A stretch of DNA of 64,000 bases from Bacteroidetes bacterium UBA2364 (GCA_002344075.1 DDTM01000057.1:24053-88052), one strand, 5' to 3'; numbered from the stretch's first letter, positions 15,750 to 35,691 are shown. Notes: generated by a model from the letters alone, not told the origin. Numbers and translations: made by a program.

Positions 15750-18083
15750 ATGAAATTTTTTTACGTCCTACTTTGTGGTTTGTTATTTCCCCTTATCGTT
15801 TTTACACAACCCCGTTTTCCGGAACCCGGCTTTGTTTTTGACGACACCTCGTTGCCGCGCATAGACCTTACCCTTTCGCCAGACTCGCTCCGCATGGCCG
15901 AAACAAATGTGACTAGCGACAAAGAATACGTAGCCAAGTTCCAGTTTACACGACGTGGGGTGGTGGAACAAGTAGAAAATGTCGGATTTCGCGTGCGGGG
16001 CAATACATCGCGAAATGCCCAAAAAAAATCATGGAAAATTTCCTTTAATACCTTTCAGAAAGGCCGGAAATGGTATGGCTTAGAAAAACTCAACCTAAAC
16101 GGCGAACACAACGACCCCTCCATCATCCGGGCAAAGCTGGCGTGGAATCTTTTCCGGCAATTTGGTGTGGCGGCTTCGCGTGCCAATCATGTTCGGGTAT
16201 TTATCAATGGAGCGTACTATGGTTTATACCTAAATGTAGAAAATATAGACGAAGAATTTGTTCAATCTCGCTTTGGTAACAACAATGGAAATCTGTATAA
16301 ATGCCTCTGGCCGGCTGATTTGGCCTGGCGAGGCTCGGATCCGAATGCGTATAAATTCACTTCGGGTGGCCGCAGAACCTATGAGTTGGAGACCAATAAT
16401 ACTGCCGATGACTACACCGACTTTCGCGACCTCGTCCGGACCATTACCCAGACTTCTGATGCCGCTTTTCCAGTAGAAATTCAGAAAGTTTTTAATGTAG
16501 ATGGTTTCCTTAAAGTGCTGGCGATGGATGTGGCCATTGGTGGATGGGACAATTATTGGTGGCTCAAAAACAATTATTACTTATATAAGAACCAAGACAC
16601 GGGATTGTTTGAGTGGATTCCCTATGACTACGACAACACCTTTGGGATAGATTTTGTGGGTCAAGACTGGGGCAACCGCAACGTGAATTTCTGGGGCAAC
16701 CAATCCGAGACACGACCCTTGGTGACGAGGCTCCTGAAGGTGGACGCCTTTCGGTATCGGTACTTATTTTATCTAAAACAAATCCTAAACAACCTGACCA
16801 AGCCCGGAACCCTAGATCCCGAAATCAACCGCTTGTATAGCATGAATCTGGATGCGGCATTGGCGGACCCTTATCGTTTATTAGACTGGAATTGGGATAT
16901 TACGTCCTTTACAAAATCTTATGATCAAGCCTTGGGTGGACATGTTAAATATGGACTTAAGACCTATCTTACTACGCGGTATAACAGCGCCACAGACCAG
17001 ATTTCCTTTACCAATATTTCACCCATTTTACGTTACCCCAAACAATCGGCCTCGGTCTTATCCCCCAATATGCCCCTCATTGTGCAAGTTCAAGTGGAAG
17101 ACGACCAACCAAACCCTACCCTCACCCTTTTGTACCGTTTTAATGGTGGAGCCGAAATGGCCTTACGGATGCGTGATGATGGAACCGGAGGCGACACCAT
17201 TGCTGGCGACGGTTCGTATGCCATCACCATTCCGGCGATGGGCCAGACGGGAAGCCTGTCTTGGTATATTGAGGCCGACGATGGGCGGCTTGGGGTTACC
17301 ACCTATCCTCCGGGAGCGCCTACCCAAACCAAGACCGTTCCCGTACTGGCTTCACCAATTGTTTTGAATGAGTTTATGGCCGAAAACACCAAAACCATTC
17401 CCGACGAAGTAGGACAATTCGAGGATTGGGTGGAGTTGTACTATGCCGGAGATTTCCCTTTTTCGTTGGAAAACTACTACCTCTCGGACGATCCCACACG
17501 ACCCGACAAATGGCCTATCCCTACCACGCAGTTGGGGCCTCAAAACCGCTATCTCCTGATTTTTGCAGATGAAGACCGGACACAAGGCACGTATCATGCC
17601 AACTTTAAACTCAGCAAAAGTGGTGAATATCTTTCCTTGGCTAAAAAAGACGGCAGCACTTTTAGTATTGTAGATGCCTTAACCTTCGGCCCGCAAACCG
17701 CCGATGTCTCCTTTGGCCGAGAACCGGATGGAACGGGAAACTGGACCCTTAGCAACAAACCCACACCTGGGAAAGCCTATCTCACAACTTCTGACCACGA
17801 CGAGCAGCCATTGGCCTTTACGGTCTCATCCGCCTTTCCTAATCCATTTAGCAATGCCATATATGTTCCGGTGACGATGCATCATGCTGGGCAGCTTAAA
17901 CTTACCCTCTACGATGTCTTAGGGCGCATGATTCATCAGACGCAAACCCTTCGACCCGCCGGATACCAGATCCTTGACCTAACTCCGGAAATACCCAATG
18001 GCGTTTATTTGTTGGAAGTGCGGATAGATTCACGACAACACACCCCGCTCCGAAAGGTAATGCGGGTGGTAAAAAGCCGATAA
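15750..18083 (+). CDS. CotH kinase-family protein with lamin-tail-like domain and T9SS C-terminal sorting domain
   Basis: Signal peptide. The CotH-like core includes 'LNLNGEHNDPSIIRAKLAWNLF' and 'DNYWWLKNNYYLY'. An LTD-like segment is 'IVLNEFMAEN...EDWVELYY'. The last ~80 aa ('FPNPFSNAIYVPV...GVYLLEVR') is typical of the Por secretion tail. Confidence 0.8.
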   Translation: MKFFYVLLCGLLFPLIVFTQPRFPEPGFVFDDTSLPRIDLTLSPDSLRMAETNVTSDKEYVAKFQFTRRGVVEQVENVGFRVRGNTSRNAQKKSWKISFNTFQKGRKWYGLEKLNLNGEHNDPSIIRAKLAWNLFRQFGVAASRANHVRVFINGAYYGLYLNVENIDEEFVQSRFGNNNGNLYKCLWPADLAWRGSDPNAYKFTSGGRRTYELETNNTADDYTDFRDLVRTITQTSDAAFPVEIQKVFNVDGFLKVLAMDVAIGGWDNYWWLKNNYYLYKNQDTGLFEWIPYDYDNTFGIDFVGQDWGNRNVNFWGNQSETRPLVTRLLKVDAFRYRYLFYLKQILNNLTKPGTLDPEINRLYSMNLDAALADPYRLLDWNWDITSFTKSYDQALGGHVKYGLKTYLTTRYNSATDQISFTNISPILRYPKQSASVLSPNMPLIVQVQVEDDQPNPTLTLLYRFNGGAEMALRMRDDGTGGDTIAGDGSYAITIPAMGQTGSLSWYIEADDGRLGVTTYPPGAPTQTKTVPVLASPIVLNEFMAENTKTIPDEVGQFEDWVELYYAGDFPFSLENYYLSDDPTRPDKWPIPTTQLGPQNRYLLIFADEDRTQGTYHANFKLSKSGEYLSLAKKDGSTFSIVDALTFGPQTADVSFGREPDGTGNWTLSNKPTPGKAYLTTSDHDEQPLAFTVSSAFPNPFSNAIYVPVTMHHAGQLKLTLYDVLGRMIHQTQTLRPAGYQILDLTPEIPNGVYLLEVRIDSRQHTPLRKVMRVVKSR

Positions 18084-18369: not shown

Positions 18370-19032
18370 ATGAAAAAACTTTTCTTCTTCTTCCTCTTTT
18401 TGACCGCTTTTCAAGTGAATGCCCAAGTTCGGGTTTCTTGTTTCGATGGAGCAGTTAGCGTGGACTCGCTCTGGACACAGGTCGAAAAAAACACCAATGT
18501 GTGTACTTTCCAAGTAGTACGACATCGAAATCACACCATATTGGCCTCTATTCGGAAATACCCTTCGGTAGTGCCAAACCGACTAACTCTTATCAGCCGA
18601 GCGTTAGAAGACCTACAAGCAAGAACTTCTATTATCGGTATGTTGTCTAATGTTCGTTTTGGAACAGAAAGCAGACCTCATTTTGTAGAACAGTATGGTT
18701 TCTTTAGGTTTACGACTCTTGTTAATGGAGAAGGCCCAACGGCTATCTATGCCTATAAACACATTAGCGCTTTATCTAGGGTAGGGGAGACAGAAGCCCA
18801 GTACTATTTTGAGTTTACCGTTTATAGTAACGCCAGTCATGACCAAGCAATCAGTGCATACAACAGCTATGAATCACAATTAAATGGTTTTAAAAATTCG
18901 TTGCAGATTAGGCCAAGACTCATAGTGAATCCGAACGTAATAACAGGCAGTGCTGGTTCCTCCATCCGAGATGCCGCACGGCCTACATTGCCCGGCGGAG
19001 TTCAACTTCCCAATAGAACAAAACGGTTCTAA
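18370..19032 (+). CDS. hypothetical secreted protein (paralog A)
   Basis: 220 aa with signal peptide 'MKKLFFFFLFLTAFQVNAQ'. Shares the 'C..G.V.V...W......CTF' N-terminal pattern with the next ORF. Confidence 0.6.
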   Translation: MKKLFFFFLFLTAFQVNAQVRVSCFDGAVSVDSLWTQVEKNTNVCTFQVVRHRNHTILASIRKYPSVVPNRLTLISRALEDLQARTSIIGMLSNVRFGTESRPHFVEQYGFFRFTTLVNGEGPTAIYAYKHISALSRVGETEAQYYFEFTVYSNASHDQAISAYNSYESQLNGFKNSLQIRPRLIVNPNVITGSAGSSIRDAARPTLPGGVQLPNRTKRF

Positions 19033-19084
19033 TGGTTTATCCAAATCTATACCAATTACGTTAAACCTCTTAGACAATTTTGCC

Positions 19085-19741
19085 ATGAAAAAAACCTTTC
19101 TTTGCTTGTTCTGGGTTTTCACCTCTCAATTACAGGCCCAAACCGTAAATTGTTTAAACGGGGACGTTCAGGTGAATAACCAAGCCGGATGGGTAAATCG
19201 TACCAACCAACTTACCCATTGCACGTTTGATAGAGGGGAGGACTATGTCTCGTATAGTGCCATGCTGCGTAAGGGAGAGACCACTTTCGCGAGTGTACGT
19301 GTATTAGCCGAAAACGTTTTGAGCAATATTCAGACAGAAACAGGTGTGGAAAACGTTCGGGTAATTAGAAATGGGTATTACAACGAGAATCCTCTGACCG
19401 ATTTCTTCATTGAATTGACCTACGCCAAAAATATGAGGGTGGGCCACGACCAAAGAACGGTGCATATTCATAAATTGATCTATGCGTTTGCAAAAAACGG
19501 AGAGGTTCAAACCCCATATTATGCCGAGGTGAGTACTTCTACCGAACTCCCAGGTGATATGGTTTCTACTCGTTTTACTGCCGAAAGTCCAAAGTTTTTC
19601 GCCTTTATCCAGTCCATTCGTTTTCCGGCGACCCACCCCAGCTTGCCTTATACCATTGATCCGAAGGCAGTCAAGGTTCCAAAAGGTATCAAAACACCGC
19701 CTAAGCAACCTCTTCGGATACCACCAAGACCCGGAAATTAA
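19085..19741 (+). CDS. hypothetical secreted protein (paralog B)
   Basis: Start moved to 'MKKTFLCLFWVFTSQLQAQ' (signal peptide). Same Cys spacing and length as paralog A, with a Pro/Lys-rich tail. Confidence 0.6.
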   Translation: MKKTFLCLFWVFTSQLQAQTVNCLNGDVQVNNQAGWVNRTNQLTHCTFDRGEDYVSYSAMLRKGETTFASVRVLAENVLSNIQTETGVENVRVIRNGYYNENPLTDFFIELTYAKNMRVGHDQRTVHIHKLIYAFAKNGEVQTPYYAEVSTSTELPGDMVSTRFTAESPKFFAFIQSIRFPATHPSLPYTIDPKAVKVPKGIKTPPKQPLRIPPRPGN

Positions 19742-19856: not shown

Positions 19857-22115
19857 ATGCGCATCCTGTTTTTATTGGGCTTGTTGCTGACGCCAACGCT
19901 ATTGAAGGCCCAAGGCACGGTAGCCGTTATCCCCCAACCCACTTCCATTACACCCGAAAGTGGGTTTTTTACTTTCCAGCCTTCTACTAAAATTGTGGTT
20001 TTGCCTGCTGGAAACAAGCGGGCGAAAGAAGTAGCCGCTTTTCTGCGTGACTGGCTGAACCAACAAGTTGGCATTAGGGCAAGCCTTCAGGCAGGGAGTC
20101 GTATTCCTGCTAGCGCCATTGTCCTTGCTTTAGAACGTCACGACGACATTACAGCCGCCGAAGGCTACGAACTCCGCATTCGTAACGGCCAGATCCGTCT
20201 CTCTGCCTCCGAGGAAAAGGGTTTGTTCTGGGCCGTACAAACCCTGCGTCAACTATTTTCGCCACGTATTGAAGGTGCAAATCCGCCGAAAAATCACCCC
20301 ATTAGCCTTCCGGCAGTCACCATAAAGGATGCGCCAAAGTTTGGCTGGCGTGGTAGTTTATTAGACGTGGGGCGGCATTTCTTTCCGGTCTCTTTTGTGA
20401 AGCGATACATAGACCTCCTCGCACAGTATAAAATGAATGTCTTGCATTGGCACCTGACCGAGGATCAGGGCTGGCGCATCGAAATCAAGAAATATCCCAA
20501 ACTGACAGAAGTGGGCGCATGGCGAACCGAAGCAGACGGCTCGCGGTATGGTGGATTTTATACCCAGCAAGAAATTCGGGAAGTGGTGGAGTATGCGCGT
20601 CTGCGCAACATTACCGTTGTGCCGGAAATTGAGATGCCCGGCCATTCTTCGGCGGCACTTGTGGCTTATCCGCAGTTTTCTTGCTCTGGCGAGACCAAAA
20701 CTATACCTATTACTTGGGGTGTATTTAACGATATTTATTGTGTGGCCAAGCCCGAGACCATGGCTTTTTTGAAAGATGTTTTGGATGAAGTTATGAGGCT
20801 GTTTCCCTCTAAATTCATCCATATTGGTGGAGACGAAGCCCCAAAAACTGCATGGAATGACTCTGAACTAACACAAGTTTTTATGCGGGAAAAGGGGCTA
20901 AAAAACGGCGAAGAACTCCAAAGTTGGTTCATCAAAGAAATAGATGCTTATGTTCGGAGCAAGGGTCGGGCCATTATTGGCTGGGACGAGATTTTGGAAG
21001 GTGGGCTTGCGTCGGGCGCAACCGTACAGGCGTGGCGCGACATCGAACATGCCCGCACCGCCACCAAATTGGGCAATTACGTCATCTCGTCGCCAACGAG
21101 TCATGCCTATTTTGATGGGCAACCAGATGGTTTACCCCTTGAAAAAGTATATGGGTTTGAACCAATTCCGGCAGGACTAACCTCGGAGGAGGCCGCTCGA
21201 ATACTCGGAGGCGAGGCCAATATCTGGACGGAATACATCACGACCGCGAATTTTGATGCGATGGTTTTTCCGCGCCTCTTGGCCATGTCGGAAGCTCTTT
21301 GGACGAAAAGTCCCCGATCTTATGCCGACTTTAAAGCCCGCCTAGACCGTGATCATTACCTGCGTCTGCGGCAATGGGGCGTACAAGTTGGTCCAGAGAA
21401 CCGCTCGCTTATTACCATGAAGCCCGTTTTTGATGCAGCATCGGGCAGTATCCGTGTGCAAGTGGAGGCCAACGTTTCCGGTATGGCACTACACTACACT
21501 ACTGATGGAAGCACACCGAAACCATCCTCATCTCGTTATACCCCAGAAGTGGTCTTTGATAAACCCGGCGATGTCTTGATTTTACCTTTATTAAATGGGG
21601 AACCACTCTTGCGCTCGGTACGATTTACGGTTCTCGAAAAACACTTGGCCGTTGGAAAAAAAGTCACCCTCACCCATCCACCGTCACCGCGTTATACCGG
21701 AATGGGCGACCAAACCCTGACCGATGGTGTACAGGGGTCGTTTACCTTCAATGATGGCCTTTGGCAAGGTTGGGGAGACCAAGATTTTGAGGCTGTCGTG
21801 GATCTTGGTACGCCGCAACCGATAAAAGACGTGGCGCTCTCCACCCTTCAGGTAAGTGGTTCATGGATTCTTTTGCCTAAAGAAGTAACTTTCTCAACCT
21901 CGTCTGATGGCAAAACATGGAGCATGCCCGCTCGCCTTACCCACGGTGAATCTCCTCGAAAATTAGAGGGTTTCCGCTATCTTTTTGTTCAACCCTTTGG
22001 CGGAGAATCCATCCGATACCTCCGCGTTACAGCGAAACGAGACACCCTTCCTGATTGGCACAATGGGCGTGGAACCCCTGCATGGGTTTTTATAGACGAA
22101 GTGGTGGTACGATAG
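19857..22115 (+). CDS. beta-N-acetylhexosaminidase (GH20) with C-terminal F5/8 type C domain
   Basis: 'LHWHLTEDQGWRIEI' and 'IHIGGDEAP' (catalytic D-E pair) are present, with a signal peptide and a discoidin-like tail 'LTDG...WQGW...SSDGKTW'. Confidence 0.92.
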   Translation: MRILFLLGLLLTPTLLKAQGTVAVIPQPTSITPESGFFTFQPSTKIVVLPAGNKRAKEVAAFLRDWLNQQVGIRASLQAGSRIPASAIVLALERHDDITAAEGYELRIRNGQIRLSASEEKGLFWAVQTLRQLFSPRIEGANPPKNHPISLPAVTIKDAPKFGWRGSLLDVGRHFFPVSFVKRYIDLLAQYKMNVLHWHLTEDQGWRIEIKKYPKLTEVGAWRTEADGSRYGGFYTQQEIREVVEYARLRNITVVPEIEMPGHSSAALVAYPQFSCSGETKTIPITWGVFNDIYCVAKPETMAFLKDVLDEVMRLFPSKFIHIGGDEAPKTAWNDSELTQVFMREKGLKNGEELQSWFIKEIDAYVRSKGRAIIGWDEILEGGLASGATVQAWRDIEHARTATKLGNYVISSPTSHAYFDGQPDGLPLEKVYGFEPIPAGLTSEEAARILGGEANIWTEYITTANFDAMVFPRLLAMSEALWTKSPRSYADFKARLDRDHYLRLRQWGVQVGPENRSLITMKPVFDAASGSIRVQVEANVSGMALHYTTDGSTPKPSSSRYTPEVVFDKPGDVLILPLLNGEPLLRSVRFTVLEKHLAVGKKVTLTHPPSPRYTGMGDQTLTDGVQGSFTFNDGLWQGWGDQDFEAVVDLGTPQPIKDVALSTLQVSGSWILLPKEVTFSTSSDGKTWSMPARLTHGESPRKLEGFRYLFVQPFGGESIRYLRVTAKRDTLPDWHNGRGTPAWVFIDEVVVR

Positions 22116-22143
22116 TCCTCGCCAAACAAGCTTATAACAAGAC

Positions 22144-22192
22144 AAAGTTTTGCAGGTAGCCTTTCGTGCTTCATGCAAAACTTTTTGTTTTT
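22144..22192 (+). terminator. intrinsic terminator after the GH20 gene
   Basis: 11-bp stem AAAGTTTTGCA / TGCAAAACTTT with a 19-nt loop, followed by TTGTTTTTA. Confidence 0.55.
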
Positions 22193-22677
22193 ACGGCCTC
22201 ACGATACATTAAAGAAATCCATTGAACCCTAAAACAGGGCTACACCCTCCCCGTATTCCTCCTTTGCCGCCTTGTCTGGCTACTTTTTTACCGTCTTAAT
22301 GCTCTTTTCGTGGCTCTTGATCCAAATATCTGGTCAAAAAACCTAAATAAAGCATCTTTAGTTTTAGGGTATAGAAAATAAAAACCATTGCCCTGTATTC
22401 GTGTCTGGATTATGTCTGGTGAAAATACTGTATTTGAAACCCTGAGGCCTTTTGCCATATCCTCCAGAATGATTTACCTTCAACACCAGAGTTATAAAAG
22501 CGCTTTCGGTGGAGCAAAGAAATAAGTTCTTAAATGTTTCATGAAGAGCATCAGTTGGTTCGCCCCAGCCAATGTGACGAAAACAAAAGACCTCTTCCCT
22601 TTTCCATCAGTTAGCAAAATCCCAATGCCCAAAACCACTGGCAAAGTGCCTGTTAACCAATTAAATGATTTTTTAGT

Positions 22678-25600
22678 ATGAAACAGTTTTTATTGGTTTT
22701 ATCCCTCGCCACGTTACCGCTTATGGCTTTCGCACAATCCGGCAAAACCACAATCCTACAGGATGCGTCTGGGATCTCCCTTGTGGTAGATGGTAAGCCG
22801 CTCATGGTGAATGGTATGAACTGGGATTATTTCCCGATTGGTACCAACTTTAATTATAGCCTGTGGAATCAGTCTGAAGCAACCATTAAAGCGGCTTTAG
22901 ACGAAGAGATGGCGCTCTTGAAAAACATGAACGTAAACGCGATCCGTGTTTATACAGGCATTCCTAAAAAGTGGATCGAATATATCTACGACAATTATGG
23001 AATCTACACCATGCTCAATCATTCGTTTGGTCGGTATGGACTAACCATAGAGGGAGCTTGGGTTGCCAATACCGATTATGCAGACCCCAAAACCAAGGCA
23101 TTGCTTCTGAAGGAAGTCACCGAGATGGTGGCCAACTATAAAAATACCAGAGGCTTGCTTTTATATCTTTTGGGAAATGAAAATAACTACGGCCTCTTTT
23201 GGTCGGGTGCCGAGACAGAAGACATTCCAATGGCAGATAGGCAATCTACCAAAAGAGCAAGATATATGTATAAACTCTTCAATGAGGCTGCCCTTGCGAT
23301 GAAGGCCATTGACAAAAGCTATCCGGTTGCCTTGTGTAATGGCGACTTGCTTTTCTTGGATATTATCGCGCAAGAATGTCCGGATGTGGATATTTTTGGG
23401 ACAAATGTGTATCGTGGTGTTTCTTTTGGAGACTTGTTCGAGCGGGTAAAAAAAGAGTACGGGAAGCCAGTTCTTTTTACAGAGTTCGGCTCGGATGCCT
23501 TTAATGCACTCACCAACGACGAAGACCAAAAAGCACAAGCCTATTACCTAAAAGAGAATTGGAAAGAAATTTACCTCAATGCCAAGGGCTTGGGTAAAGC
23601 AGGGAACTCCATTGGCGGATTTACTTTTCAATTTAGTGATGGATGGTGGAAATATGGACAAACCAAAAATTTGGATATTCATGACAGCAACGCCTCGTGG
23701 GGGAACGGAGGCTATCAGTTCGACTATCGTGAAGGCCAGAACAACATGAATGAAGAGTGGTTTGGCATCTGTGCAAAAGGGCCGACCAATGCACAAGGCT
23801 TATACCAACTCTATCCGCGTGCTGCTTATTATTTATTGAAAGATGCGCATCAACTAAATCCTTATACAAATGGGACGACGGCGGCAAAAGTAGAGGCCCA
23901 TTTTGCGGCAACGAACATCATGGATGCTGTCTTGAGGGCACGATCAGACAAAGCCGCCATTCAAGGACAATCCGGCGAAAAAATTAAACTATCGCGATTT
24001 ACTGCAGAGTTTTCCACCTTCAACACTGGTGGGAGCCTCATTTCAACACCAACAACAGCGGCGTCCAACAGTAGCGATTACCCCAAACAATTAGGGTTCG
24101 ATCATATGCAGTCGTTTTATGTTGGGATAGAGGCAAAACCTGTTGCCAACATGATGGCCAATGTCACCTTTAATGTCTTAGGAAATGTGGCTCAAAATCC
24201 GATAGACCAAATCTTTTATGAAAACCGAGGCCGACCCGTTGTTTTAAATTCTGACAATGGAAACGTGCAATTGGATGATGCAAACCGCGTGCAAGTATAT
24301 AGTGCAAGCTATAATTGGAATCATGACTGGTTTAATCTAAACGGATTTTACAGAACGGGACACTATCACTGGGGCTACGAAGGCGACTTCTTCGGCCTGT
24401 ATCCTGAAGCCAATTATGGCCCAATGATTGACATTTATAATGCCACAGCGCCTCTTGGTTTTGAAGTAGAAGGCAAGAAAGCGCTCAAACATTTCAAGGC
24501 TGCTTTCGGGCCACAATTATGGTGGGGTGCAAATCCGGCATTTTTGCTCAAATATGGCCGCAAAGTCGGAAACTCGGAACTGACGGGCCTATATCACGAA
24601 GACCTACAAGAACAAGGGAATGTACAAAGCTCGTTTGCCGTCCCACAACCCAAAACAAGAAGGGTAACGCTGCATTTAAACCGCAAATTAAATAAATTCA
24701 TTTTCGATTTAGGTGGAATTTGGGCAGGCCAACCCCTCAATGGTAGGGTGTACCAAGTACAACGAGGTGCCGAGGGAAATTATCAGGTATTTCAGCACAA
24801 AATTGAAGGCAAAGACAACTGGGGCGGAAAAGCAAAAATCACCTATACGGGTGGGAAGTTCAATTGGTATGCCCAAGGGGCTGCCCAAGGTCTGGTGGCT
24901 TCCGGCGGCGCTGATCTAACGAAAACCTTTACCGGATGGCGCTTGAAAGACAGCGGAAGTGGCAATCAGTACAATTTTTTAACGGGCTTTACCCTTGCTA
25001 CTGGCCAACTACAAATTGCTCCCAACTTTTTGTGGCAAAAACCCATTGAAGGCCCCATCAGTACCGATGTTCCCGCACCGGGAAGGCCGCGAAACATCCT
25101 CACAGACCCGTTTGCGGTACGGGCAAATAGAGAGCAAATTGCCGGAGAAATCTTATTCAGCTACGATCCAACACCCGCCTCTTGGATGTACGAGTGGGAC
25201 AACGACCGCGCAGAAGATGCACCTTTTGCAATGAACCTGGGCTTTATTTATCGTCACCTCCCCACCACCCAAGATGCCGCAATTGGGATATTCCCAGATG
25301 GCAGAAGTTCTTTCCCATTCAATGGGGCACCTCCAGCCAAAGATCTTTGGGAAATACATTCCAGAATGGTCTCGAAGATTAGTCCGGAATTGGGGATTAT
25401 CGCCAACCTTTTTGCCGGAACTGCACAAGCAAACGGGAGTGATCCGCGAACCGTCACAAGATTTGGTGGAGATCTGCGGGCCGTATTTAATAAAAGTAAA
25501 TTAATTGCTTCGGCAAAAATAAATGATTGGGGACCGTTCGATTATCACCGAGATTTTAACCTGACCTTCCCTATTCAATTAATGGCAGATTTATCTACCG

Positions 25601-25815
25601 AAATTGCAAAGCCAGATTGGTTTGCATTGCCAGGAACGCGCATTGGATTACGGGGTGTCTGGAGGACTTTAGACCGCTATTCCCCACGCTATAATCCAAC
25701 GCAAATGTTGGATGCTTATGGGAAATGGGTACCCAATCCCAATGCTGTTGGTTATCCAAATGGTACGGAATGGGAAATTAGAACCTATGTCCATATCAAC
25801 TTGGGAAACAAATAA
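22678..25815 (+). CDS. secreted clan GH-A glycosidase domain fused to a ~620-aa putative beta-barrel region
   Basis: Signal peptide. (beta/alpha)8 signatures are 'NAIRVY', acid/base 'LLGNENNY' (Glu codon 23179-23181) and nucleophile 'LFTEFGSD' (Glu codon 23482-23484). The C-terminal region is rich in alternating amphipathic strands. Confidence 0.75.
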   Translation: MKQFLLVLSLATLPLMAFAQSGKTTILQDASGISLVVDGKPLMVNGMNWDYFPIGTNFNYSLWNQSEATIKAALDEEMALLKNMNVNAIRVYTGIPKKWIEYIYDNYGIYTMLNHSFGRYGLTIEGAWVANTDYADPKTKALLLKEVTEMVANYKNTRGLLLYLLGNENNYGLFWSGAETEDIPMADRQSTKRARYMYKLFNEAALAMKAIDKSYPVALCNGDLLFLDIIAQECPDVDIFGTNVYRGVSFGDLFERVKKEYGKPVLFTEFGSDAFNALTNDEDQKAQAYYLKENWKEIYLNAKGLGKAGNSIGGFTFQFSDGWWKYGQTKNLDIHDSNASWGNGGYQFDYREGQNNMNEEWFGICAKGPTNAQGLYQLYPRAAYYLLKDAHQLNPYTNGTTAAKVEAHFAATNIMDAVLRARSDKAAIQGQSGEKIKLSRFTAEFSTFNTGGSLISTPTTAASNSSDYPKQLGFDHMQSFYVGIEAKPVANMMANVTFNVLGNVAQNPIDQIFYENRGRPVVLNSDNGNVQLDDANRVQVYSASYNWNHDWFNLNGFYRTGHYHWGYEGDFFGLYPEANYGPMIDIYNATAPLGFEVEGKKALKHFKAAFGPQLWWGANPAFLLKYGRKVGNSELTGLYHEDLQEQGNVQSSFAVPQPKTRRVTLHLNRKLNKFIFDLGGIWAGQPLNGRVYQVQRGAEGNYQVFQHKIEGKDNWGGKAKITYTGGKFNWYAQGAAQGLVASGGADLTKTFTGWRLKDSGSGNQYNFLTGFTLATGQLQIAPNFLWQKPIEGPISTDVPAPGRPRNILTDPFAVRANREQIAGEILFSYDPTPASWMYEWDNDRAEDAPFAMNLGFIYRHLPTTQDAAIGIFPDGRSSFPFNGAPPAKDLWEIHSRMVSKISPELGIIANLFAGTAQANGSDPRTVTRFGGDLRAVFNKSKLIASAKINDWGPFDYHRDFNLTFPIQLMADLSTEIAKPDWFALPGTRIGLRGVWRTLDRYSPRYNPTQMLDAYGKWVPNPNAVGYPNGTEWEIRTYVHINLGNK

Positions 25816-25866
25816 TGTAATTGAAGGGCAGTCCATTTATCATATTCACAGTCAATCTGAAATTCG

Positions 25867-27270
25867 ATGAAAAACAATAAATCAATGAATCGTTTGCTCA
25901 GTGTAATAGGAGTTGTTTTTTACACACTATTATTGAGTGGTTGCCAAAACGATGACAGCGTTTTTACGGCTGCAACCTATCCAAATAACCCCGATGTTTT
26001 TCTGGATTCATTTTCTGGAGGCTTGAATTATGCCGCATTTTCAGGTACTGTACCCACGGCTTTTCAGGTGGATAAAAAAGTTACCTATAACAATACGGCC
26101 CAATCCATGCGGTTTGATGTACCCAACGCAGGAGACCGCTTAGGAACATATGCCGGAGGTGCTTTTTTTACGCATGTTGGCAGAGACCTGACACAATACG
26201 ATGCCCTTACCTTTTGGGTAAAAGCGACGGAGGCCGCAACCATCGGCGCCATTGGTTTTGGAGTTGACTTAGGCGAGAACAAGTTTCAAGCAGGCTTTAG
26301 CGACCTGAAAGTGGGTACTACATGGCAAAAAGTCATCATCCCAATTCCCAATCCAGCCGCTCTGAAAAATGAAAAAGGGTTGTTTTATGTTTCTGCGGGC
26401 AATCAGAGTGGTAATGGATATTCTTTTTGGGTAGACGAAGTGCAGTTCGAAAAATTAGGAACCATTGCGCATCCACAACCCTCCATATTGAACGGCGAAA
26501 ATCAAAATAAATTTGGCTTTGTTGGAATTAATACCAATGTTTCCAACCTACAGGTCCTCTTCAATATGCCTTGGGGAGAAAATAAGGGAGTTAATGTTAC
26601 TCCACATTATTTTACTTTCATCAGCTCAAAGCCAGAAGTTGCTTCCGTAGATACAAAAGGTGTTGCAACCATTGTAGGACAAGGCACGACCACCATAACG
26701 GCTAAATTAGGAGATATTACGGCAAAAGGTAGCCTTACCCTCACTGGTACAGGTGTTTTTGTTCCAGCACCAACACCCAATAGAGCCGCAAGCCGTGTCA
26801 TTTCCATATTTAGTGATGGCTATACCAATGTTCCGGTAGAATATTATAATGGTTATTGGGCACCCTACCAAACCACCCAATCTGCAGATTTTAAAATTAA
26901 TAATGACAATGTATTGAATTATACGGCGTTTAATTTTGTGGGAATCCAGTTTGCAAATCCCGTTATTAATGCCAGTGCAATGACCCATTTTCATGCAGAT
27001 ATTTTCATACCCGGTACACTCGCAGCAGGCGCAACGTTCAAAATCCAACTTGTTGACTTTGGTGCAGATGGTGTTTTTGGAGGGGGGAACGACAAAAATC
27101 ATACGACCACGTACACGGCACCGACCCTTGGTGGAAATCGGTGGATAAGCATTGATATTCCTTTCTCAGTAATGACTGGGCTAACAAGTAGAACAAGTTT
27201 GGCACAGATTGTTTTTGAAGGGACGAATATCAGTAATTTTTATGCTGATAATATTTATTTTTACAATTAA
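25867..27270 (+). CDS. surface glycan-binding-type lipoprotein (CBM-like / Big_2 / CBM-like)
   Basis: Lipobox 'LLSGC'. Central Big_2-like segment 'VASVDTKGVATIVGQGTTTITAKLGDITAKGSLTL', flanked by jelly-roll-like modules ('YSFWVDEVQFEK', 'ISIFSDGYTNV...NIYFY'). Confidence 0.65.
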   Translation: MKNNKSMNRLLSVIGVVFYTLLLSGCQNDDSVFTAATYPNNPDVFLDSFSGGLNYAAFSGTVPTAFQVDKKVTYNNTAQSMRFDVPNAGDRLGTYAGGAFFTHVGRDLTQYDALTFWVKATEAATIGAIGFGVDLGENKFQAGFSDLKVGTTWQKVIIPIPNPAALKNEKGLFYVSAGNQSGNGYSFWVDEVQFEKLGTIAHPQPSILNGENQNKFGFVGINTNVSNLQVLFNMPWGENKGVNVTPHYFTFISSKPEVASVDTKGVATIVGQGTTTITAKLGDITAKGSLTLTGTGVFVPAPTPNRAASRVISIFSDGYTNVPVEYYNGYWAPYQTTQSADFKINNDNVLNYTAFNFVGIQFANPVINASAMTHFHADIFIPGTLAAGATFKIQLVDFGADGVFGGGNDKNHTTTYTAPTLGGNRWISIDIPFSVMTGLTSRTSLAQIVFEGTNISNFYADNIYFYN

Positions 27271-28142
27271 TGCACTCCACTTTTAAAACCACAAATACAA
27301 TGAGAAATTTTAGATATACCTCTATATATTGGGGTCTCACTGGCATTTTGTTCTTTTTCTTGACAAGTGGTTGCGATCTAAAAGAAGGGCAAAATCTACC
27401 TGAAAGAAATTGGAGCCTGACTTGGTCAGACGAGTTCGATGGACAAGCCGGAGCACTACCTAATGCTCAGAAATGGGCCTTTGATATTGGCAGAGGCGAT
27501 AATGGATGGGGTAATTCGGAGCTACAATACTACACCAACAGACCACAAAATGCTGCTTTAGACGGAAATGGAAATCTCGTTATTACGGCTATAAAGGAAA
27601 ACTTCGGAGGTGCTAGCTATACCTCTGCTCGTCTTAAAACAAAAGATATTTTCACCCAAAAATATGGCCGTTTTGAGGCCCGTATTCAAACGCCATATGG
27701 CCAAGGAATTTGGCCCGCTTTCTGGATGTTGGGCGATAACATCGAAACCGCAACTTGGCCTTTGTGTGGTGAAATAGATGTCATGGAACAACGTGGACAA
27801 GAGCCTTCTGTTCTGAATGGCTCCCTCCATGGTCCCGGCTTTTCTGGTGCAAATCCGTTAACGGGAAAATATGTCCTTAAAAACAGCCGATTTGATACCG
27901 GATTTCATGTCTATGCGGTTGAGTGGTTTGAAGATAGAATTGACTTTTTTGTAGACGACCTGCTCTATCATCGGATCACCAAAAAAGATATTCCTGCAAA
28001 TGGACAATGGGTTTATGATCATCCATTCTTTATGATTCTGAATGTGGCAGTAGGTGGAAACTATGTGGGAGCGCCTAATACGGGCACCAATTTTCCACAA
28101 AAAATGATCATTGACTACGTGAAGGTTTATCAGGAAATGTAA
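27270..28142 (+). CDS. GH16 endo-beta-1,3-glucanase (laminarinase-type) lipoprotein
   Basis: Catalytic 'GEIDVMEQ' (ExDxxE), with 'WSDEFDG', 'WPAFWML' and 'YAVEW'. The ATG overlaps the upstream TAA (TAATG). An alternative start at 27300 (MRNFRY...) gives a cleaner lipoprotein signal 'LTSGC'. Confidence 0.9.
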   Translation: MHSTFKTTNTMRNFRYTSIYWGLTGILFFFLTSGCDLKEGQNLPERNWSLTWSDEFDGQAGALPNAQKWAFDIGRGDNGWGNSELQYYTNRPQNAALDGNGNLVITAIKENFGGASYTSARLKTKDIFTQKYGRFEARIQTPYGQGIWPAFWMLGDNIETATWPLCGEIDVMEQRGQEPSVLNGSLHGPGFSGANPLTGKYVLKNSRFDTGFHVYAVEWFEDRIDFFVDDLLYHRITKKDIPANGQWVYDHPFFMILNVAVGGNYVGAPNTGTNFPQKMIIDYVKVYQEM

Positions 28143-28186
28143 TATTTTTTGCATGAATAACCCATTTTTTCCTAAAACTCTCAAGA

Positions 28187-31100
28187 ATGAAACAGGTTGT
28201 CTTCGGTAATACTACATTTTATCAAATTAGTAATATTGATAAAATGAGACCATTTTTTATGACAATTTTGAGTTCCTCGAATCATTGGATGTTTATTTCG
28301 AGTAACGGCGGACTTACAGCAGGTCGGACAAGTGCTGACTTTTCGCTTTTTCCTTATTACACCGAAGATAAAATCGCAGATTCTGCCGAATATACTGGCT
28401 CTAAAACCATTATTCGAGGTAAAAATAAGGCAGGTAGTTACGTCTGGGAACCCTTCTCTACGAGAAATCAAGGTCATTTTGAAACCCAGCGGAATTTGTA
28501 TAAAAGCGTTTATGGAAATGAGCTTATTTTTGAAGAAATTAACCAGACTCATGGGCTAATTTTCAGATACCAGTGGAGCAATGCTGCCCAATATGGCTTT
28601 GTTCGAAAGGCAACATTGGTTAATCTAAACACCGAAGATTGCCAAATTGAGGTACTTGATGGTCTCCAGAATATACTTCCGGCAGGAGTTGGCAGCAATT
28701 TACAAAACTTTTACAGTAATTTGGTGGATGCCTACAAACAAAGTGAGTTGGTAGTGCCATCAGGCTTGGGCATCTACGCCCTTTCAGCCATTATTGTGGA
28801 TCGGGCGGAGCCCAGTGAGGCACTCAAAGCGAATACTGTTTGGTCGTTTGGGCTTCGCAACCCTATTAATTTACTCTCTAACTTTCAATTAGAATCATTT
28901 AGGAATGGAATGACCATCCTTCCTGAAATTGAAAACAAAGGCGAAAAGGGAGCTTATTTTATCTGTGAAACCCTAACACTACCTGCAAATAATGCTAAAG
29001 AATGGTATATGGTGGCCGATGTTCATAAAAATCACAGTGAGGTCATCCATTTAATTGAAGCCCTTAAACAACCTGACCGTTTGATAAAAGGTGTTTTAGC
29101 AAATGTAATGGAAGGAACAAAGAATCTCCTTAAACTAGCTTGTAATGCAGATGGATTGCAAACCACATCTGACCCCCTTAAAGACTCCAGACATTTTTCC
29201 AATGTCTTATTCAACATTATGAGAGGTGGTATTTTTGATGATCAATACTTTATTTCAAAATCAGATTTTCTATCTTACCTCAACAAAGCAAATAAACATA
29301 TTTTTGAACTAATTTCAGTAGAAGCGATAAAATGGCCTGAAAAATTTGAATTTAATTTTATAAAAAAATCAGATCTATTTAATAAAAATATTGACTTTCA
29401 AAGACTAAGTAAGGAATATTTACCTTTGTATTTCAGTCGAAGACATGGGGATCCCTCGCGTCCATGGAATCAGTTTCATGTAAATACCATACATGAAACT
29501 GATGGCAGCAAAGTGCTGGATTATCAAGGGAATTGGCGTGATATTTTTCAAAATTGGGAAGCATTGGCTATATCTTTTCCGGACTATGCAGAAAGTATGA
29601 TTTATAAATTCTTAAATGCAACCACGTTTGAAGGATACAACCCTTACAGAGTAAGTAAAGATGGTTTTGATTGGGAAATTATTGAGCCAGATGACCCTTG
29701 GGCATATATCGGATATTGGGGAGACCATCAAGTTATTTATTTGTTGAAGTTCTTGGAATTTATAACTGCTTATAAGCCTGGTTTATTAGAGAATTTATTT
29801 GATAAAGAATGCTTTGTCTATGCCCATATCCCTTATAAAATAAAAAAATATCAAGACATTATTCTCAATCCCAAGGATACCATTACATTCGATCATGCAA
29901 TGGACCTACGTATTCGGGAAGAAAGAACACTTATTGGATCTGATGCTTGTTTGATTAAAGATGAAAATAATAACATTCACCATGTTAACTTCATTGAAAA
30001 AATTCTCGCTGTTATTTTATCTAAGATATCTAACTTTATCCCCGAAGCGGGTATTTGGATGAATACTCAAAGACCTGAATGGAATGATGCGAACAATGCG
30101 TTGGTTGGAAATGGTGTTTCGATGGTTACGTTGTATTATTTACGTCGCTTTTTGGTCTTTTTTGAAAAGATATTAAATACATCTACAGTTAGCGAAGTTA
30201 AAATTTCGCAAGAACTCATTGACTGCTACAAGAATATTCGGAAAATTCTGGAAGAAAATGTAATTTTACTCGCGTCAAAAATCAGCGATAATGATCGTAA
30301 AAATATTGTGGATCAAATTGGTGAAGCGGCAAGTTCCTACCGCTGGCATGTATATGATCATGGATTTTGGGGTAAAAAGCGCACTATCTCAATTGAAGGT
30401 ATTCAACGATTTAACAAGATATCTTTACAGTTTATTGATCACGCTATCGAATCCAACCAAAGACCAGATGGGCTATATCATGCATATAATTTAGCCTCAT
30501 TTGAAGGTGAAACTGTGAAGATATCTCACCTTACCGTGATGTTAGAAGGCCAAGTAGCTGCGCTGAGCGCGGGAATATTAGATGCGAAACAAGTGGTGCA
30601 GGTTTTAAATGCATTAAAGCAAAGCCCCTTATATGACCAAGACCGAAATAGCTATATTTTATATCCAAATAAGAAGTTGCCGGGCTTTCTGGAAAAAAAC
30701 ACATTTGATGAATCGGAAATAAAAGACTGCCAATTAATTATTGAATTAATTGACAAAGGAGATAAGTCAATTATCGAGAAAGATATATTAGGATATTATC
30801 ATTTTCATAAAGATTTCAAAAATATTAATGATTTAAAAGATGGATTAACAAAATTAATTTCTCATAATTATGTACACTATAATAAAACTGAATTAGATAA
30901 AATATATTCCATCTACGAAAAAATATTTAATCACAAAGCCTTTACAGGGAGATCCGGTACTTTTTATGCCTATGAAGGGTTAGGTTCGATTTATTGGCAT
31001 ATGGTTTCAAAGTTATTATTGGCTGTTGTAGAAAATATTTTTAAAGCATATCACGAAAAAGCAGATAAAAAACACTGCGATGCTCTGATTAAGCACTACT

Positions 31101-31594
31101 ATGACCTCTACGAAGGTCTCGGAATTCATAAGTCCCCTCAAGCATATGGCGCATTTCCTACGGATGCTTATTCGCATACGCCTTCCAAAAAAGGTGCACA
31201 ACAACCGGGAATGACTGGACAGGTGAAAGAAGATATAATCTGCCGTTGGGGTGAATTAGGTGTTCATATACAAAATGGACAGATTCATTTTGAACCTATA
31301 ATGCTTGAAAAGAAGACATTCAAGGACGATCCCTTCTTGTTTGTTTATACGGATGTTGAAAATAAACAAAACAAGTGCCTTGTACCTAAAAACAGTTTGA
31401 CATTTACTTACTGCCAGGTTCCCATAATTTATGAGTTTGGAGATAAAGTAAGCATGACGGTAATACTAAAAGATCAAGAAGAGATGATATTTAATACTCA
31501 TATTCTATCATCCGAATTAAGTGAAGCTATATTTTTGAGAAAAGGAGTTGTACAATGTATAAAAATAAGTATTAATCCTAATACATTAATTTGA
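28187..31594 (+). CDS. large cytoplasmic protein, putative beta-glucan phosphorylase (GH94/GH149/GH161-like)
   Basis: 1135 aa with no signal peptide. 'NWRDIFQNWE' resembles the GH94 'G(F/Y)RDSNQD' block, and 'QRPEWNDANNAL' resembles the GH94 catalytic 'ADWNDCLN' block. It lies between GH16 and GH30/MFS. The family call is from memory of motifs, not from a search. Confidence 0.5.
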   Translation: MKQVVFGNTTFYQISNIDKMRPFFMTILSSSNHWMFISSNGGLTAGRTSADFSLFPYYTEDKIADSAEYTGSKTIIRGKNKAGSYVWEPFSTRNQGHFETQRNLYKSVYGNELIFEEINQTHGLIFRYQWSNAAQYGFVRKATLVNLNTEDCQIEVLDGLQNILPAGVGSNLQNFYSNLVDAYKQSELVVPSGLGIYALSAIIVDRAEPSEALKANTVWSFGLRNPINLLSNFQLESFRNGMTILPEIENKGEKGAYFICETLTLPANNAKEWYMVADVHKNHSEVIHLIEALKQPDRLIKGVLANVMEGTKNLLKLACNADGLQTTSDPLKDSRHFSNVLFNIMRGGIFDDQYFISKSDFLSYLNKANKHIFELISVEAIKWPEKFEFNFIKKSDLFNKNIDFQRLSKEYLPLYFSRRHGDPSRPWNQFHVNTIHETDGSKVLDYQGNWRDIFQNWEALAISFPDYAESMIYKFLNATTFEGYNPYRVSKDGFDWEIIEPDDPWAYIGYWGDHQVIYLLKFLEFITAYKPGLLENLFDKECFVYAHIPYKIKKYQDIILNPKDTITFDHAMDLRIREERTLIGSDACLIKDENNNIHHVNFIEKILAVILSKISNFIPEAGIWMNTQRPEWNDANNALVGNGVSMVTLYYLRRFLVFFEKILNTSTVSEVKISQELIDCYKNIRKILEENVILLASKISDNDRKNIVDQIGEAASSYRWHVYDHGFWGKKRTISIEGIQRFNKISLQFIDHAIESNQRPDGLYHAYNLASFEGETVKISHLTVMLEGQVAALSAGILDAKQVVQVLNALKQSPLYDQDRNSYILYPNKKLPGFLEKNTFDESEIKDCQLIIELIDKGDKSIIEKDILGYYHFHKDFKNINDLKDGLTKLISHNYVHYNKTELDKIYSIYEKIFNHKAFTGRSGTFYAYEGLGSIYWHMVSKLLLAVVENIFKAYHEKADKKHCDALIKHYYDLYEGLGIHKSPQAYGAFPTDAYSHTPSKKGAQQPGMTGQVKEDIICRWGELGVHIQNGQIHFEPIMLEKKTFKDDPFLFVYTDVENKQNKCLVPKNSLTFTYCQVPIIYEFGDKVSMTVILKDQEEMIFNTHILSSELSEAIFLRKGVVQCIKISINPNTLI

Positions 31595-31622
31595 ATAATA
31601 TTTATTAATTTGAATAATATTT
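31585..31622. repeat. perfect 19-nt tandem duplication at a gene junction
   Basis: ATTAATTTGAATAATATTT occurs at 31585-31603 and again at 31604-31622. Copy 1 contains the TGA stop of the upstream gene, and copy 2 ends 1 nt before the GH30 ATG. Confidence 0.95.
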
Positions 31623-31623
31623 T

Positions 31624-33117: not shown

Positions 33118-33119
33118 TC

Positions 33120-34703: not shown

Positions 34704-35663
34704 TTATTTAGAGGGTGCTTGTGTTAGCCATGCAAGTAGAACGCGGTTAAAAACCTCAGGCTGTTCTAATGGCAGTAAGTGTCCGGCTTTTTCCAACAAC
34801 TCCACTTTTGCATTATGAAGGGCAGTCCCGGCGCGGCTGGCAATATCTGCTGTGGTAAGGCCGGGATTAAAGAAACGGTTGGGAATCATCTTGTCCCCCT
34901 TGCCATAAAGAACCAAAACAGGAAGGTGGAGGGCATCCAACTGCTCATAAACAGGGCCATCCAACATGCCAGAAACCGACTTTTCGTTGACCTCGGCATA
35001 GGCGCGGAAGTCTGATCGGGTTTTCCATGCTTTCCGTTGTTCTACTAACCATCCAAATTTGGGGGCATCGTAGTTATCGAAATTAAGTGCAATACTGGTC
35101 GTGATTTGTGGGTCGGTAGCCTCCATGATAGACTTGACGGTCATGAAGTTCCTTAGGCTTATCCGTGCTTTTTCGTCGAAAGTCTCAATTCCAGCCGCCG
35201 AGACCAAAACGAGTTTCGACACTTTTTTTGGATGTTGAAGTGCGAGTGTCATGCCGATTTGCCCACCCATAGAGAGGCCCACATACGTCACTTTTTCAAT
35301 CCGCATGGCTGTCAGAAAAGCCGCTATTTGATTCGCAAACCACGACATGGTCGCGGGCACTTGTTCCTTAGACGAAGCACCATATCCGGGAAGGTCTATA
35401 GCAATTACACGATAACCTTCGGTGAATGCTTGCAGGTTTTCCTTCCAAAAAGAAGCATTGGAACCGAGACCATGTACAAACAAAAGCACCTCCTTACCTT
35501 TGCCACCTTCCCAAAAAGCAATCTGCTGGTTGCCTACGGTTATTTTTTTCATGGATGGGAGGGTGTGTGGCAATGTATCGGTAACGGGCATTGTAGGTAT
35601 TTTGGTGGTGCGGCATCCGGCAAGGATAACCGTTAGAAAAAAGAAGATGAAAATTGCCTTCAT
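34704..35663 (-). CDS. alpha/beta hydrolase lipoprotein
   Basis: Lipobox 'ILAGC', oxyanion 'FVHGLGSN', nucleophile elbow 'GLSMGG', Asp in 'YGKGDKMIP' and His in 'KAGHLLPLE'. Confidence 0.85.
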   Translation of the reverse strand: MKAIFIFFFLTVILAGCRTTKIPTMPVTDTLPHTLPSMKKITVGNQQIAFWEGGKGKEVLLFVHGLGSNASFWKENLQAFTEGYRVIAIDLPGYGASSKEQVPATMSWFANQIAAFLTAMRIEKVTYVGLSMGGQIGMTLALQHPKKVSKLVLVSAAGIETFDEKARISLRNFMTVKSIMEATDPQITTSIALNFDNYDAPKFGWLVEQRKAWKTRSDFRAYAEVNEKSVSGMLDGPVYEQLDALHLPVLVLYGKGDKMIPNRFFNPGLTTADIASRAGTALHNAKVELLEKAGHLLPLEQPEVFNRVLLAWLTQAPSK

Positions 35664-35691
35664 GAAGATATACGATATTTAGCTTATGTAT

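Follow-up and report, generated by a model that had tools for sequence, protein, structure and literature searches.

How does beta-1,3-glucan cross the outer membrane when the locus that degrades it encodes no SusC/SusD pair? Such pairs are regarded as the hallmark of glycan uptake in Bacteroidota, and they are used for finding polysaccharide utilisation loci (PULs) and for inferring which algal glycans are consumed in the ocean, where laminarin is among the largest carbon fluxes. The question is raised by a gene at positions 22678 to 25815 of a 64,000-nucleotide stretch from Bacteroidetes bacterium UBA2364 (GCA_002344075.1 DDTM01000057.1:24053-88052), here called the window. The open reading frame (ORF) starts with ATG on the plus strand and its translation is 1045 amino acids (aa) long. 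On balance, we interpret the product as a secreted two-domain protein of the outer membrane (OM), in which a glucanase resembling glycoside hydrolase (GH) family 158 is joined to a beta-barrel of a previously unrecognised family. We lean to the same extent towards the barrel being the OM channel of the locus, which would conduct sugars in a beta-1,3-glucan system that lacks SusC/SusD. The features of the gene are listed below, with the evidence for each in brackets.

22678-25815, plus strand: whole gene, 1045 aa; signal peptide, GH158-like clan GH-A domain, helical linker and predicted C-terminal OM beta-barrel
22678-22734, plus strand: type-I (non-lipoprotein) signal peptide, residues 1-19, MKQFLLVLSLATLPLMAFA followed by QSG (read directly from the sequence)
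22741-23862, plus strand: predicted clan GH-A (beta/alpha)8 catalytic domain, GH158-like, residues ~22-395 (PF02836; Foldseek; profile)
23176-23181, plus strand: N167-E168, predicted catalytic acid/base in the motif GNENNY (invariance; alignment with the GNE of BuGH158 and GH158(Pro))
23482-23484, plus strand: E269, predicted catalytic nucleophile in the motif TEFG (invariance; alignment with the TEWG/TEFG of GH158)
23881-23973, plus strand: helical linker from the enzyme to the first barrel strand, residues 402-432 (DSSP on the full-length model)
23983-25803, plus strand: predicted OM beta-barrel domain, residues 436-1042 (structure model, Foldseek, loop/turn alternation, covariation)
24352-24453, plus strand: long aromatic/acidic loop, residues 559-592, YHWGYEGDFFGL, the most conserved loop of the barrel (conservation)

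By inspection of the sequence, the N-terminus is hydrophobic and has a cleavage site between AFA and Q, with no lipobox Cys. More than 5,500 homologues were found, and the best 120, from Flavobacterium, Saprospiraceae, Bacteroidales and Mariniphaga, are about 70% identical across the full length of ~1044 aa. The annotations of these 120 go no further than 'glycosidase', 'GH2 TIM barrel-domain protein' or 'GH5 family protein'. An earlier sequence-only reading of the gene had described a glycosidase domain fused to a putative barrel; its ORF coordinates are exact, and all the peptide strings that it quoted are found in the translation. It knew of no characterised example, and our non-exhaustive search of the literature likewise found no description of a glycosidase fused to a barrel or of this barrel family, and nothing relevant on a laminarin porin or on membrane-proteomic evidence.

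Fold of the C-terminal domain

Searches with the C-terminal ~620 residues, using the single sequence as well as a profile of the close family, found nothing in Pfam, NCBIfam or the PDB sequences, and the profile of the wider family matched no OM protein among the PDB sequences. There was no Pfam match to a carbohydrate-binding module (CBM) or an immunoglobulin-like (Ig) domain, as the sequence-only reading had held, and the richness in Gly, Asn and aromatic residues that it described is borne out by the composition (10% Gly, 7% Asn and 13% aromatic, with zero Cys). An AlphaFold2 (AF2) run on the full-length protein, with 42 close homologues as input, yielded a predicted local distance difference test score (pLDDT) of 67.6 and a predicted template-modelling score (pTM) of 0.47, so that the domain arrangement in this model is unreliable. 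In its place we used a domain-only run on residues 425-1045, based on a diverse alignment of 62 sequences from Bacteroidota and Gammaproteobacteria, for which the pLDDT was 78.4 and the pTM 0.78, with all five models at 75-78. According to DSSP, this model consists of 26 long strands in an all-beta meander, each with one hydrophobic face. The 50 best PDB matches identified by Foldseek were all OM barrels, with no sandwich among them, and included BtuB, Cir, PfeA, MOMP, MtrB, LptD, FimD, OprD/Occ, OmpF and LamB. Long (median 22 aa) and short (median 3 aa) connections between strands follow each other in turn along the chain (Mann-Whitney p=1.7e-4). The protein hence combines a cleavable signal peptide with an even-numbered, antiparallel and amphipathic meander in which short turns and long loops take turns, as in OM barrels.

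To assess strand pairing independently of AF2, we applied mean-field direct coupling analysis (mfDCA) to 344 homologues (effective number of sequences, Meff, 180). The signal of 21 of the 25 sequence-adjacent strand pairs lay above the 97th percentile of pairs that are not adjacent (p=1.7e-12), and the registers were cleanly antiparallel, which supports an unbroken meander of at least 24 successive hairpins. The direct pairing of strand 11 with strand 14 indicates that strands 12 and 13 form a loop hairpin and that the wall more likely has 24 strands. We thus give the strand count as 24-26, with a wall of probably 24. The 'large porin-like barrel' of the sequence-only reading is supported as to its fold: the predicted structure has an OM barrel fold, not soluble beta-sandwich or CBM domains. 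The term 'porin-like' is too modest on size, since 24-26 strands correspond to the class of LptD, MtrB and the ushers.

The structure model and the covariation make it very probable that the C-terminal domain adopts an OM beta-barrel fold. That the barrel prediction is an artefact, and that the region instead folds into a series of soluble beta-sandwich, CBM or Ig domains, is hardly credible. A pattern of amphipathic strands alone is also found in beta-sandwiches, and the first full-length model was of moderate quality, but the domain is modelled as a single fold, its structural matches are all OM barrels, the covarying hairpins are continuous, long and short connections alternate, homologues carry canonical beta-signals (see below), and Cys residues as well as CBM and Ig matches are lacking. 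The CBM array was rejected because of the single-fold barrel model and the missing CBM and Ig matches.

The barrel would represent a new OM protein family. Its strand number is comparable to that of the LptD, MtrB and FimD class of barrels, which are among its fold matches. LptD/LptE is the closest known system in size and architecture, with a soluble N-domain, a giant C-terminal barrel and a co-encoded lipoprotein; however, LptD/LptE, MtrB/MtrA and FimD have no sequence relationship to the fusion protein, yield TM-scores of only ~0.3, and differ in genomic context and substrate. LamB/ScrY, ChiP, CymA and KdgM/NanC are, like the system proposed here, TonB-independent OM channels encoded in catabolic loci for a single class of glycans, and the conserved aromatic residues in the putative in-folded loops of our barrel would make a plausible 'greasy slide' as in these channels. 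They differ in having 12-18 strands and no fused enzyme, and in showing no detectable sequence similarity; LamB appears in the Foldseek list at rank 50 only (TM 0.27-0.35).

Across phyla, conservation within the barrel is highest in long aromatic/acidic loops. Conservation over Bacteroidota and Gammaproteobacteria is 0.80 for loop 559-592 and 0.91 for its motif YHWGYEGDFFGL. Such conservation fits loops that fold inwards to form a constriction or a binding site better than loops that are exposed or merely structural, making loop 559-592 a candidate constriction or sugar-binding loop. The only long turn on the presumed periplasmic side, 20 aa at residues 830-849 (nucleotides 25165-25224; DPTPASWMYEWDNDRAEDAP), is also among the most conserved segments of the family, stand-alone barrels included (conservation 0.78-0.84), and might plug the lumen from below.

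Family members and their distribution

An exhaustive HMMER search with residues 420-1045 gave 499 representatives, and a genome scan placed the gene in at least 598 GTDB species. The carriers listed belong to Flavobacteriales (including Riemerella anatipestifer), Chitinophagales, Saprospiraceae, Bacteroidales, Cytophagales and Balneolales, and further homologues are found in Gammaproteobacteria. The family comprises fused proteins of ~1000-1100 aa, a variant in which a CBM4_9 domain precedes the glycosidase and the barrel (e.g. P0259, 1218 aa, with CBM4_9, GH-A and barrel), a variant with two glycosidase domains (e.g. P0124, 1351 aa, with two tandem GH-A-like regions ahead of the barrel, the first apparently degenerate), and stand-alone barrels of ~570-615 aa. 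The stand-alone barrels have their own signal peptides, lack the helical linker and contain ~25-60 residues ahead of strand 1. They end in YATYKF, YFTYSF or FYVHKF, which are canonical beta-signals of the Y-x-F type, and the gammaproteobacterial homologues likewise end in Y-x-F.

In Gammaproteobacteria, the stand-alone barrels are encoded between genes for GH16, CBM4_9-GH16, GH1 and LacI on the one side and an Opp-type ATP-binding cassette (ABC) importer on the other, and the fused forms are located in loci with GH16, GH17, GH30, GH1 or GH3, GH149, and a major facilitator superfamily (MFS) or ABC transporter. No TonB-dependent receptor was found among the called genes of the gammaproteobacterial loci examined. 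The contexts in Gammaproteobacteria and Bacteroidota together link the barrel, in two phyla, to the breakdown of beta-1,3-glucan, whether or not it carries the enzyme. Each of the gammaproteobacterial fused genes is followed by a gene for a conserved lipoprotein of ~220 aa with a lipobox ending in AAC (L087:13177-13869 and L089:13099-13749); the proteins of these two distant loci are 39% identical (E=1e-40). This lipoprotein matches nothing in Pfam and is not similar to the 467-aa lipoprotein encoded next to the barrel in Bacteroidota. The succession of a barrel gene and a lipoprotein gene has thus apparently arisen or been retained in both lineages.

Conserved gene order and the SusC/SusD position

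In the window, the genes at 22678-34541 form a tight co-directional cluster, with gaps of at most 51 nucleotides or overlaps. The fusion gene is followed by five genes:

25867-27270, plus strand: partner lipoprotein, 467 aa, lipobox LLSGC followed by QNDDS, Ig-like domain between CBM-like modules (Pfam, Big-like; synteny)
27270-28142, plus strand: GH16 laminarinase-type lipoprotein, 290 aa, lipobox LTSGC (PF00722, E=1.6e-23)
28187-31594, plus strand: GH149 beta-1,3-oligosaccharide phosphorylase, no signal peptide and hence cytoplasmic (PDB 6hq6, 1445 bits, full length)
31624-33117, plus strand: GH30 of the beta-1,6-glucosidase type, type-I signal peptide and hence periplasmic (PF02055, E=2e-76)
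33120-34541, plus strand: MFS_2 inner-membrane sugar transporter of the glycoside-pentoside-hexuronide type (PF13347, E=1.9e-63)

We sampled 80 loci from six or more orders. The conserved order is a Y_Y_Y/LuxR regulator (in part of the loci), the fusion gene, a CBM/Ig lipoprotein, GH16, GH149, GH17, GH30 and MFS, and a marine Tara locus is organised in the same way. A lipoprotein gene is located directly 3' of the fusion gene in 75 of the 80 loci; of the five others, four end within 350 bp past the fusion gene and one, L079, has 528 bp downstream with no match. GH16 was found in 71 loci, GH149 in 54, GH17 in 49, GH30 in 40 and MFS in 36-39, and the Y_Y_Y/LuxR (BguR-type) regulator is encoded directly upstream of the fusion gene in 39. 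In the window, a tblastn search found neither a BguR-type regulator nor GH17 anywhere, and the region upstream of the fusion gene (19857-22677) contains a GH20 hexosaminidase gene and an AT-rich spacer of 562 bp in the place of the regulator. Counts from scans of 22-35 kb for sigma-70 promoters and intrinsic terminators equalled those expected from shuffled sequence; Bacteroidota-type promoters are not covered by these scans.

Domain matches among orthologues of the partner lipoprotein were to Big_2 (23 of 30), CBM11 (9 of 30) and CBM30 (4 of 30), the lipobox Cys is invariant, and there was no match to a SusD Pfam family. From the CBM and Big domains and the invariant Cys, the partner looks like a surface glucan-binding protein and is probably surface-exposed.

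A BguR-type regulator is encoded directly upstream of SusC/SusD in the laminarin PUL of Formosa agariphila (preprint 10.64898/2026.01.10.698779). Where the regulator is present, the fusion gene and the lipoprotein gene occupy the SusC/SusD slot behind it, as the first two structural genes past the regulator and ahead of the glycoside hydrolases. The logic of an OM barrel, a surface glycan-binding lipoprotein and a surface endo-glycanase is also shared with SusC/SusD systems. Utilisomes hold enzyme and transporter together in a stable association; here the enzyme is covalently fused. In contrast to SusC, the barrel has no plug, no TonB box and no SusC homology, and its transport is presumably not energised, while SusD is alpha-helical and the partner here is a CBM/Ig beta-protein. 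A sensitive tblastn search identified TonB-dependent or SusC-like genes within 10 kb of the fusion gene in only 3 of the 80 loci. These are L067, where the gene is co-directional and located downstream at +4663 from the fusion gene, L042 and L074, which are candidate hybrid loci with both uptake systems.

These results suggest, again on balance, that the barrel and the lipoprotein form a complex that serves as the OM module of a laminarin operon independent of SusC/SusD and apparently of TonB. The suggestion of the sequence-only reading that such a fusion could replace SusC/D thereby gains strong circumstantial support from the SusC/SusD slot, the near absence of TonB-dependent transporters (3 of 80 loci) and the stand-alone barrels in laminarin loci, and its guess of a beta-1,3-glucan substrate agrees with the GH158 affinity and with GH16, GH149, GH30 and MFS in the operon.

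We considered whether the barrel could instead be a divergent TonB-dependent, SusC-like transporter that carries an enzyme in place of the N-terminal extension. Several of the top fold matches are indeed barrels of TonB-dependent transporters, and a lipoprotein gene follows downstream as it does with SusD or BtuG. However, there is no match to Plug or TonB_dep_Rec (PF07715, PF00593) even at E<=1, the consensus contains no conserved TonB-box-like motif at the N-terminus, the residues ahead of strand 1 in the stand-alone forms are too few for a plug, and the strand count is unlike the 22 of such transporters. We regard this explanation as highly improbable and rejected it on the missing plug match, the count of 24-26 strands and the absence of a SusD-family partner.

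Export in place of uptake was also considered. In synthase-dependent exopolysaccharide systems, a periplasmic glycosidase or lyase is paired with an OM barrel, and the fusion protein could by analogy be an OM porin with a periplasmic glycosidase for secretion of a beta-glucan exopolysaccharide, like BcsC/BcsZ, PgaA/PgaB or AlgE/AlgL. GH17, which is encoded in some of the loci, could fit this role since GH17 enzymes can act as transglycosylases (PMC11005184). However, no glycosyltransferase or synthase recurs across the 80 loci, and the partners are catabolic, i.e. the GH16 lipoprotein, GH30, the GH149 phosphorylase, MFS or ABC importers, and LacI/GntR or BguR-type regulators. An exopolysaccharide export porin is thus very unlikely, and was rejected given the catabolic neighbours and the lack of a recurring synthase.

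Taken together, the OM component of these loci is neither SusC/D, a TonB-dependent transporter, a known sugar porin nor an autotransporter (see below), and the logic of the locus is that of a PUL.

Relationship of the N-terminal domain to GH158

The only library model matched by the fusion protein was PF02836, a GH2-type TIM-barrel model that aligned with residues ~35-280 (Pfam, E=4e-8), and a single-sequence search of the PDB gave weak matches to LacZ-type (GH2) chains (E~3e-4). When the full-length AF2 model was compared with Foldseek, entries for GH158 endo-beta-1,3-glucanases (9p26, 9oro and 6pal) came first (E 1e-12 to 1e-11), four orders of magnitude ahead of the GH2, GH5 and GH1 enzymes behind them; the top matches all belong to clan GH-A and the domain has the (beta/alpha)8 TIM-barrel fold. 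A family profile built from the diverse alignment matched BuGH158 (6pal, 2.7e-7) and GH158(Pro) (9oro, 8.6e-7) in the PDB, with the GNE acid/base and TEWG/TEFG nucleophile motifs in register. N167-E168 and E269 are invariant in the alignment of 42 close homologues, and positions 168 and 269 are Glu in all 46 fused members of the diverse alignment, gammaproteobacterial ones included. In BuGH158, residues N136, E137 and E220 are experimentally essential (PMC7157763). On the strength of the fold matches, the profile matches and the conserved catalytic glutamates, it is likely that the N-domain is a clan GH-A, GH158-like enzyme, probably a retaining beta-1,3-glucanase; the assignment of residues ~20-400 to clan GH-A by the sequence-only reading agrees with the PF02836 match, the GH158 folds and the invariant E168 and E269.

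The GH2 beta-galactosidase identity implied by the annotation in Pfam and NCBI was rejected, since only PF02836 matches, and weakly, and no beta-sandwich domains precede it: the TIM barrel begins about 20 residues beyond the signal peptide, and the N-terminal sugar-binding and Ig-like beta-sandwich domains of GH2 enzymes are missing. Both the fusion protein and the GH158 enzymes (BuGH158, 6pal; GH158(Pro), 9oro/9p25) have the clan GH-A fold, the N-E acid/base motif and the E nucleophile motif, and are encoded in beta-1,3-glucan utilisation loci beside GH16. The GH158 enzymes have a C-terminal Ig-like domain, a loop of which shapes or caps the active site (PMC7157763; PMC13195107), whereas in the AF2 models of the fusion protein the residues past ~395 form linker helices and then the barrel, with no counterpart of the eight-stranded Ig-like domain. 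It further differs in conserved insertions (e.g. 325-358) and in the fused barrel of 610 aa, the GH158 proteins being lipoproteins or soluble enzymes. The insertion at residues 325-358 (nucleotides 23650-23751; WWKYGQT, NASW.NGGY and NNMNEEWFG in order) is highly conserved with many invariant positions, and has a pLDDT below 50. Nothing corresponds to it in the alignments with GH158, and it could form a contact surface for the barrel or gate access of the substrate.

Marine 'variant-1' laminarin PULs contain GH149/GH17/GH16/GH158/GH30 (PMC10877868), which is the content of the loci described here. Annotation pipelines may therefore already call the fusion protein GH158, with the barrel overlooked.

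Proposed pathway and the position of the enzyme

In the pathway that we propose, the partner lipoprotein would capture glucan at the surface and act as capture or lid partner of the barrel, and the GH16 lipoprotein would make the first cuts at the cell surface. Oligosaccharides would then pass through the barrel, with the conserved aromatic/acidic loops as a specificity constriction, and the tethered GH158-like domain would shorten the chains at the mouth of the channel, on the periplasmic side in the default topology. Cleavage of the emerging chain in the periplasm would keep diffusion directed inward without TonB. GH30, together with GH17 in other genomes, would debranch and trim the products in the periplasm, the MFS permease would import short oligosaccharides, and the cytoplasmic GH149 would phosphorolyse them.

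By the usual rule for OM proteins, strand 1 begins at the periplasmic face, which would make the enzyme periplasmic. The highest-scoring pairs in the inter-domain covariation fall either on the junction of the two domains or on columns prone to indels, without enrichment of periplasmic turns or of extracellular loops. We give the periplasmic side only a slight preference over the surface.

If the enzyme is located outside, the protein could be a surface-display anchor similar to an autotransporter, in which the barrel translocates and anchors the glucanase, the linker helix threads the lumen, and oligosaccharides are taken up by other, unlinked porins or TonB-dependent transporters. The order of N-terminal passenger, helix 402-432 and C-terminal barrel mimics type Va/Vd autotransporters such as EstA and PlpD, which also combine an N-terminal enzyme, a helical linker and an OM barrel. 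Furthermore, the predicted location of BuGH158 is the cell surface (PMC7157763), and the N-terminal CBM4_9 of variant P0259 is typical of enzymes that meet polymeric substrate. However, barrels without a passenger are conserved in laminarin loci, the barrels of type Va/Vd systems have 12 or 16 strands (with POTRA in type Vd) compared to 24-26 here and serve secretion and anchoring only, and no homology to them and no match to an autotransporter Pfam family was detected. In addition, the long loops are the most conserved segments across phyla, which is unexpected for a passive anchor, and 77 of the 80 loci encode no other OM transporter. We consider surface display unlikely; a classical autotransporter was rejected, as there is no autotransporter or POTRA match in Pfam and the barrel is about twice as large. 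A hybrid is possible, in which the enzyme lies outside and the barrel nevertheless works as a channel.

Coming back to a channel with a periplasmic enzyme, the nearest precedent in concept comes from marine laminarin PULs, whose GH17-MFS 'transporter-CAZyme fusion' (Unfried et al. 2018, PMC6246565) likewise places a beta-1,3-glucanase on a transporter with the rationale of coupling hydrolysis to uptake. That fusion involves an alpha-helical permease of the inner membrane, whereas ours involves a beta-barrel of the outer membrane. More tentatively, and with some doubt, one may envisage a hydrolysis-coupled ratchet, in which cleavage by the periplasmic enzyme, and not TonB, drives long laminarin chains inward. 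The giant 24-strand barrel, lidded or plugged by the CBM lipoprotein, would then be a TonB-independent importer of Bacteroidota and marine Gammaproteobacteria, and the many 'incomplete' laminarin loci without SusCD would be complete, self-sufficient systems.

Several observations weigh against a channel with a tethered glucanase. The TM-scores of the barrel to known barrels are low (0.25-0.41); the fold class is clear, with no close relative among the solved structures. The closing pair beta1-beta26 ranks 17th of 300 strand pairs in mfDCA, which is only suggestive of closure; the residue pair 444-1039 of these strands is in the top ~40 of ~190,000 pairs, and closure is also suggested by the pTM of 0.78 and by fold matches that are all closed barrels. 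The C-terminus of the window protein, EWEIRTYVHINLGNK, has an amphipathic last strand and ends in HINLGNK without a terminal aromatic residue. A barrel of 24-26 strands far exceeds the known sugar porins in size and would require a plug, and none was identified. On the enzyme side, identity to GH158 is ~14%, a distant relationship, and the protein has no equivalent of the Ig-like domain by which the active site is shaped in GH158. The full-length model and the inter-domain covariation give no side for the enzyme. Finally, the genomes may hold SusCD laminarin PULs elsewhere, and no experimental localisation, transport or activity of any family member was found in the literature.

Genomic surroundings of the cluster in the window

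The window is from a Rhodothermales metagenome-assembled genome, and the closest homologues come from Flavobacterium and other Bacteroidota. The GC content at third codon positions (GC3) is 0.30-0.46 in the six-gene glucan cluster (22678-34541), with minima in GH149 (0.30) and GH30 (0.33), as compared to ~0.48-0.51 in the flanking genes. The low GC content and the foreign closest homologues suggest that the cluster was acquired horizontally, possibly as a mosaic.

Upstream, a gene at 15750-18083 (plus strand) encodes a protein that combines a CotH-kinase domain, a lamin-tail domain and a C-terminal sorting domain for type IX secretion, and this sorting domain indicates that the host has a type IX secretion system. 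Two adjacent ORFs at 18370-19032 and 18950-19741 encode proteins with signal-peptide-like N-termini and no Pfam match. Downstream, on the minus strand at 34704-42330, are genes for an alpha/beta hydrolase, an AMP-binding (acyl-CoA synthetase-like) enzyme, a sodium:solute symporter, 3-oxoacyl-ACP synthase III (KAS III) and a CarboxypepD_reg-Plug TonB-dependent receptor; this opposite-strand cluster is apparently unrelated to the glucan operon.

Implications for laminarin uptake

Laminarin loci without SusCD have been counted as 'incomplete subtypes' (PMC6298971), and some GH149 clusters were remarked to be without an OM transporter (PMC5827456). Our claims on the fold and the genomic context are strong, and the claim of transport, as predicted from them, is well motivated. 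The fusion protein and its lipoprotein may constitute a second, undescribed route of glucan uptake in these bacteria. If the barrel and the lipoprotein are the missing OM component, a conserved laminarin pathway has been mis-scored in at least about 600 species, from freshwater Flavobacterium to marine Gammaproteobacteria. The protein would then be the first glycosidase covalently fused to an OM channel, and would provide a testable model of hydrolysis-coupled, TonB-independent uptake of polymers.

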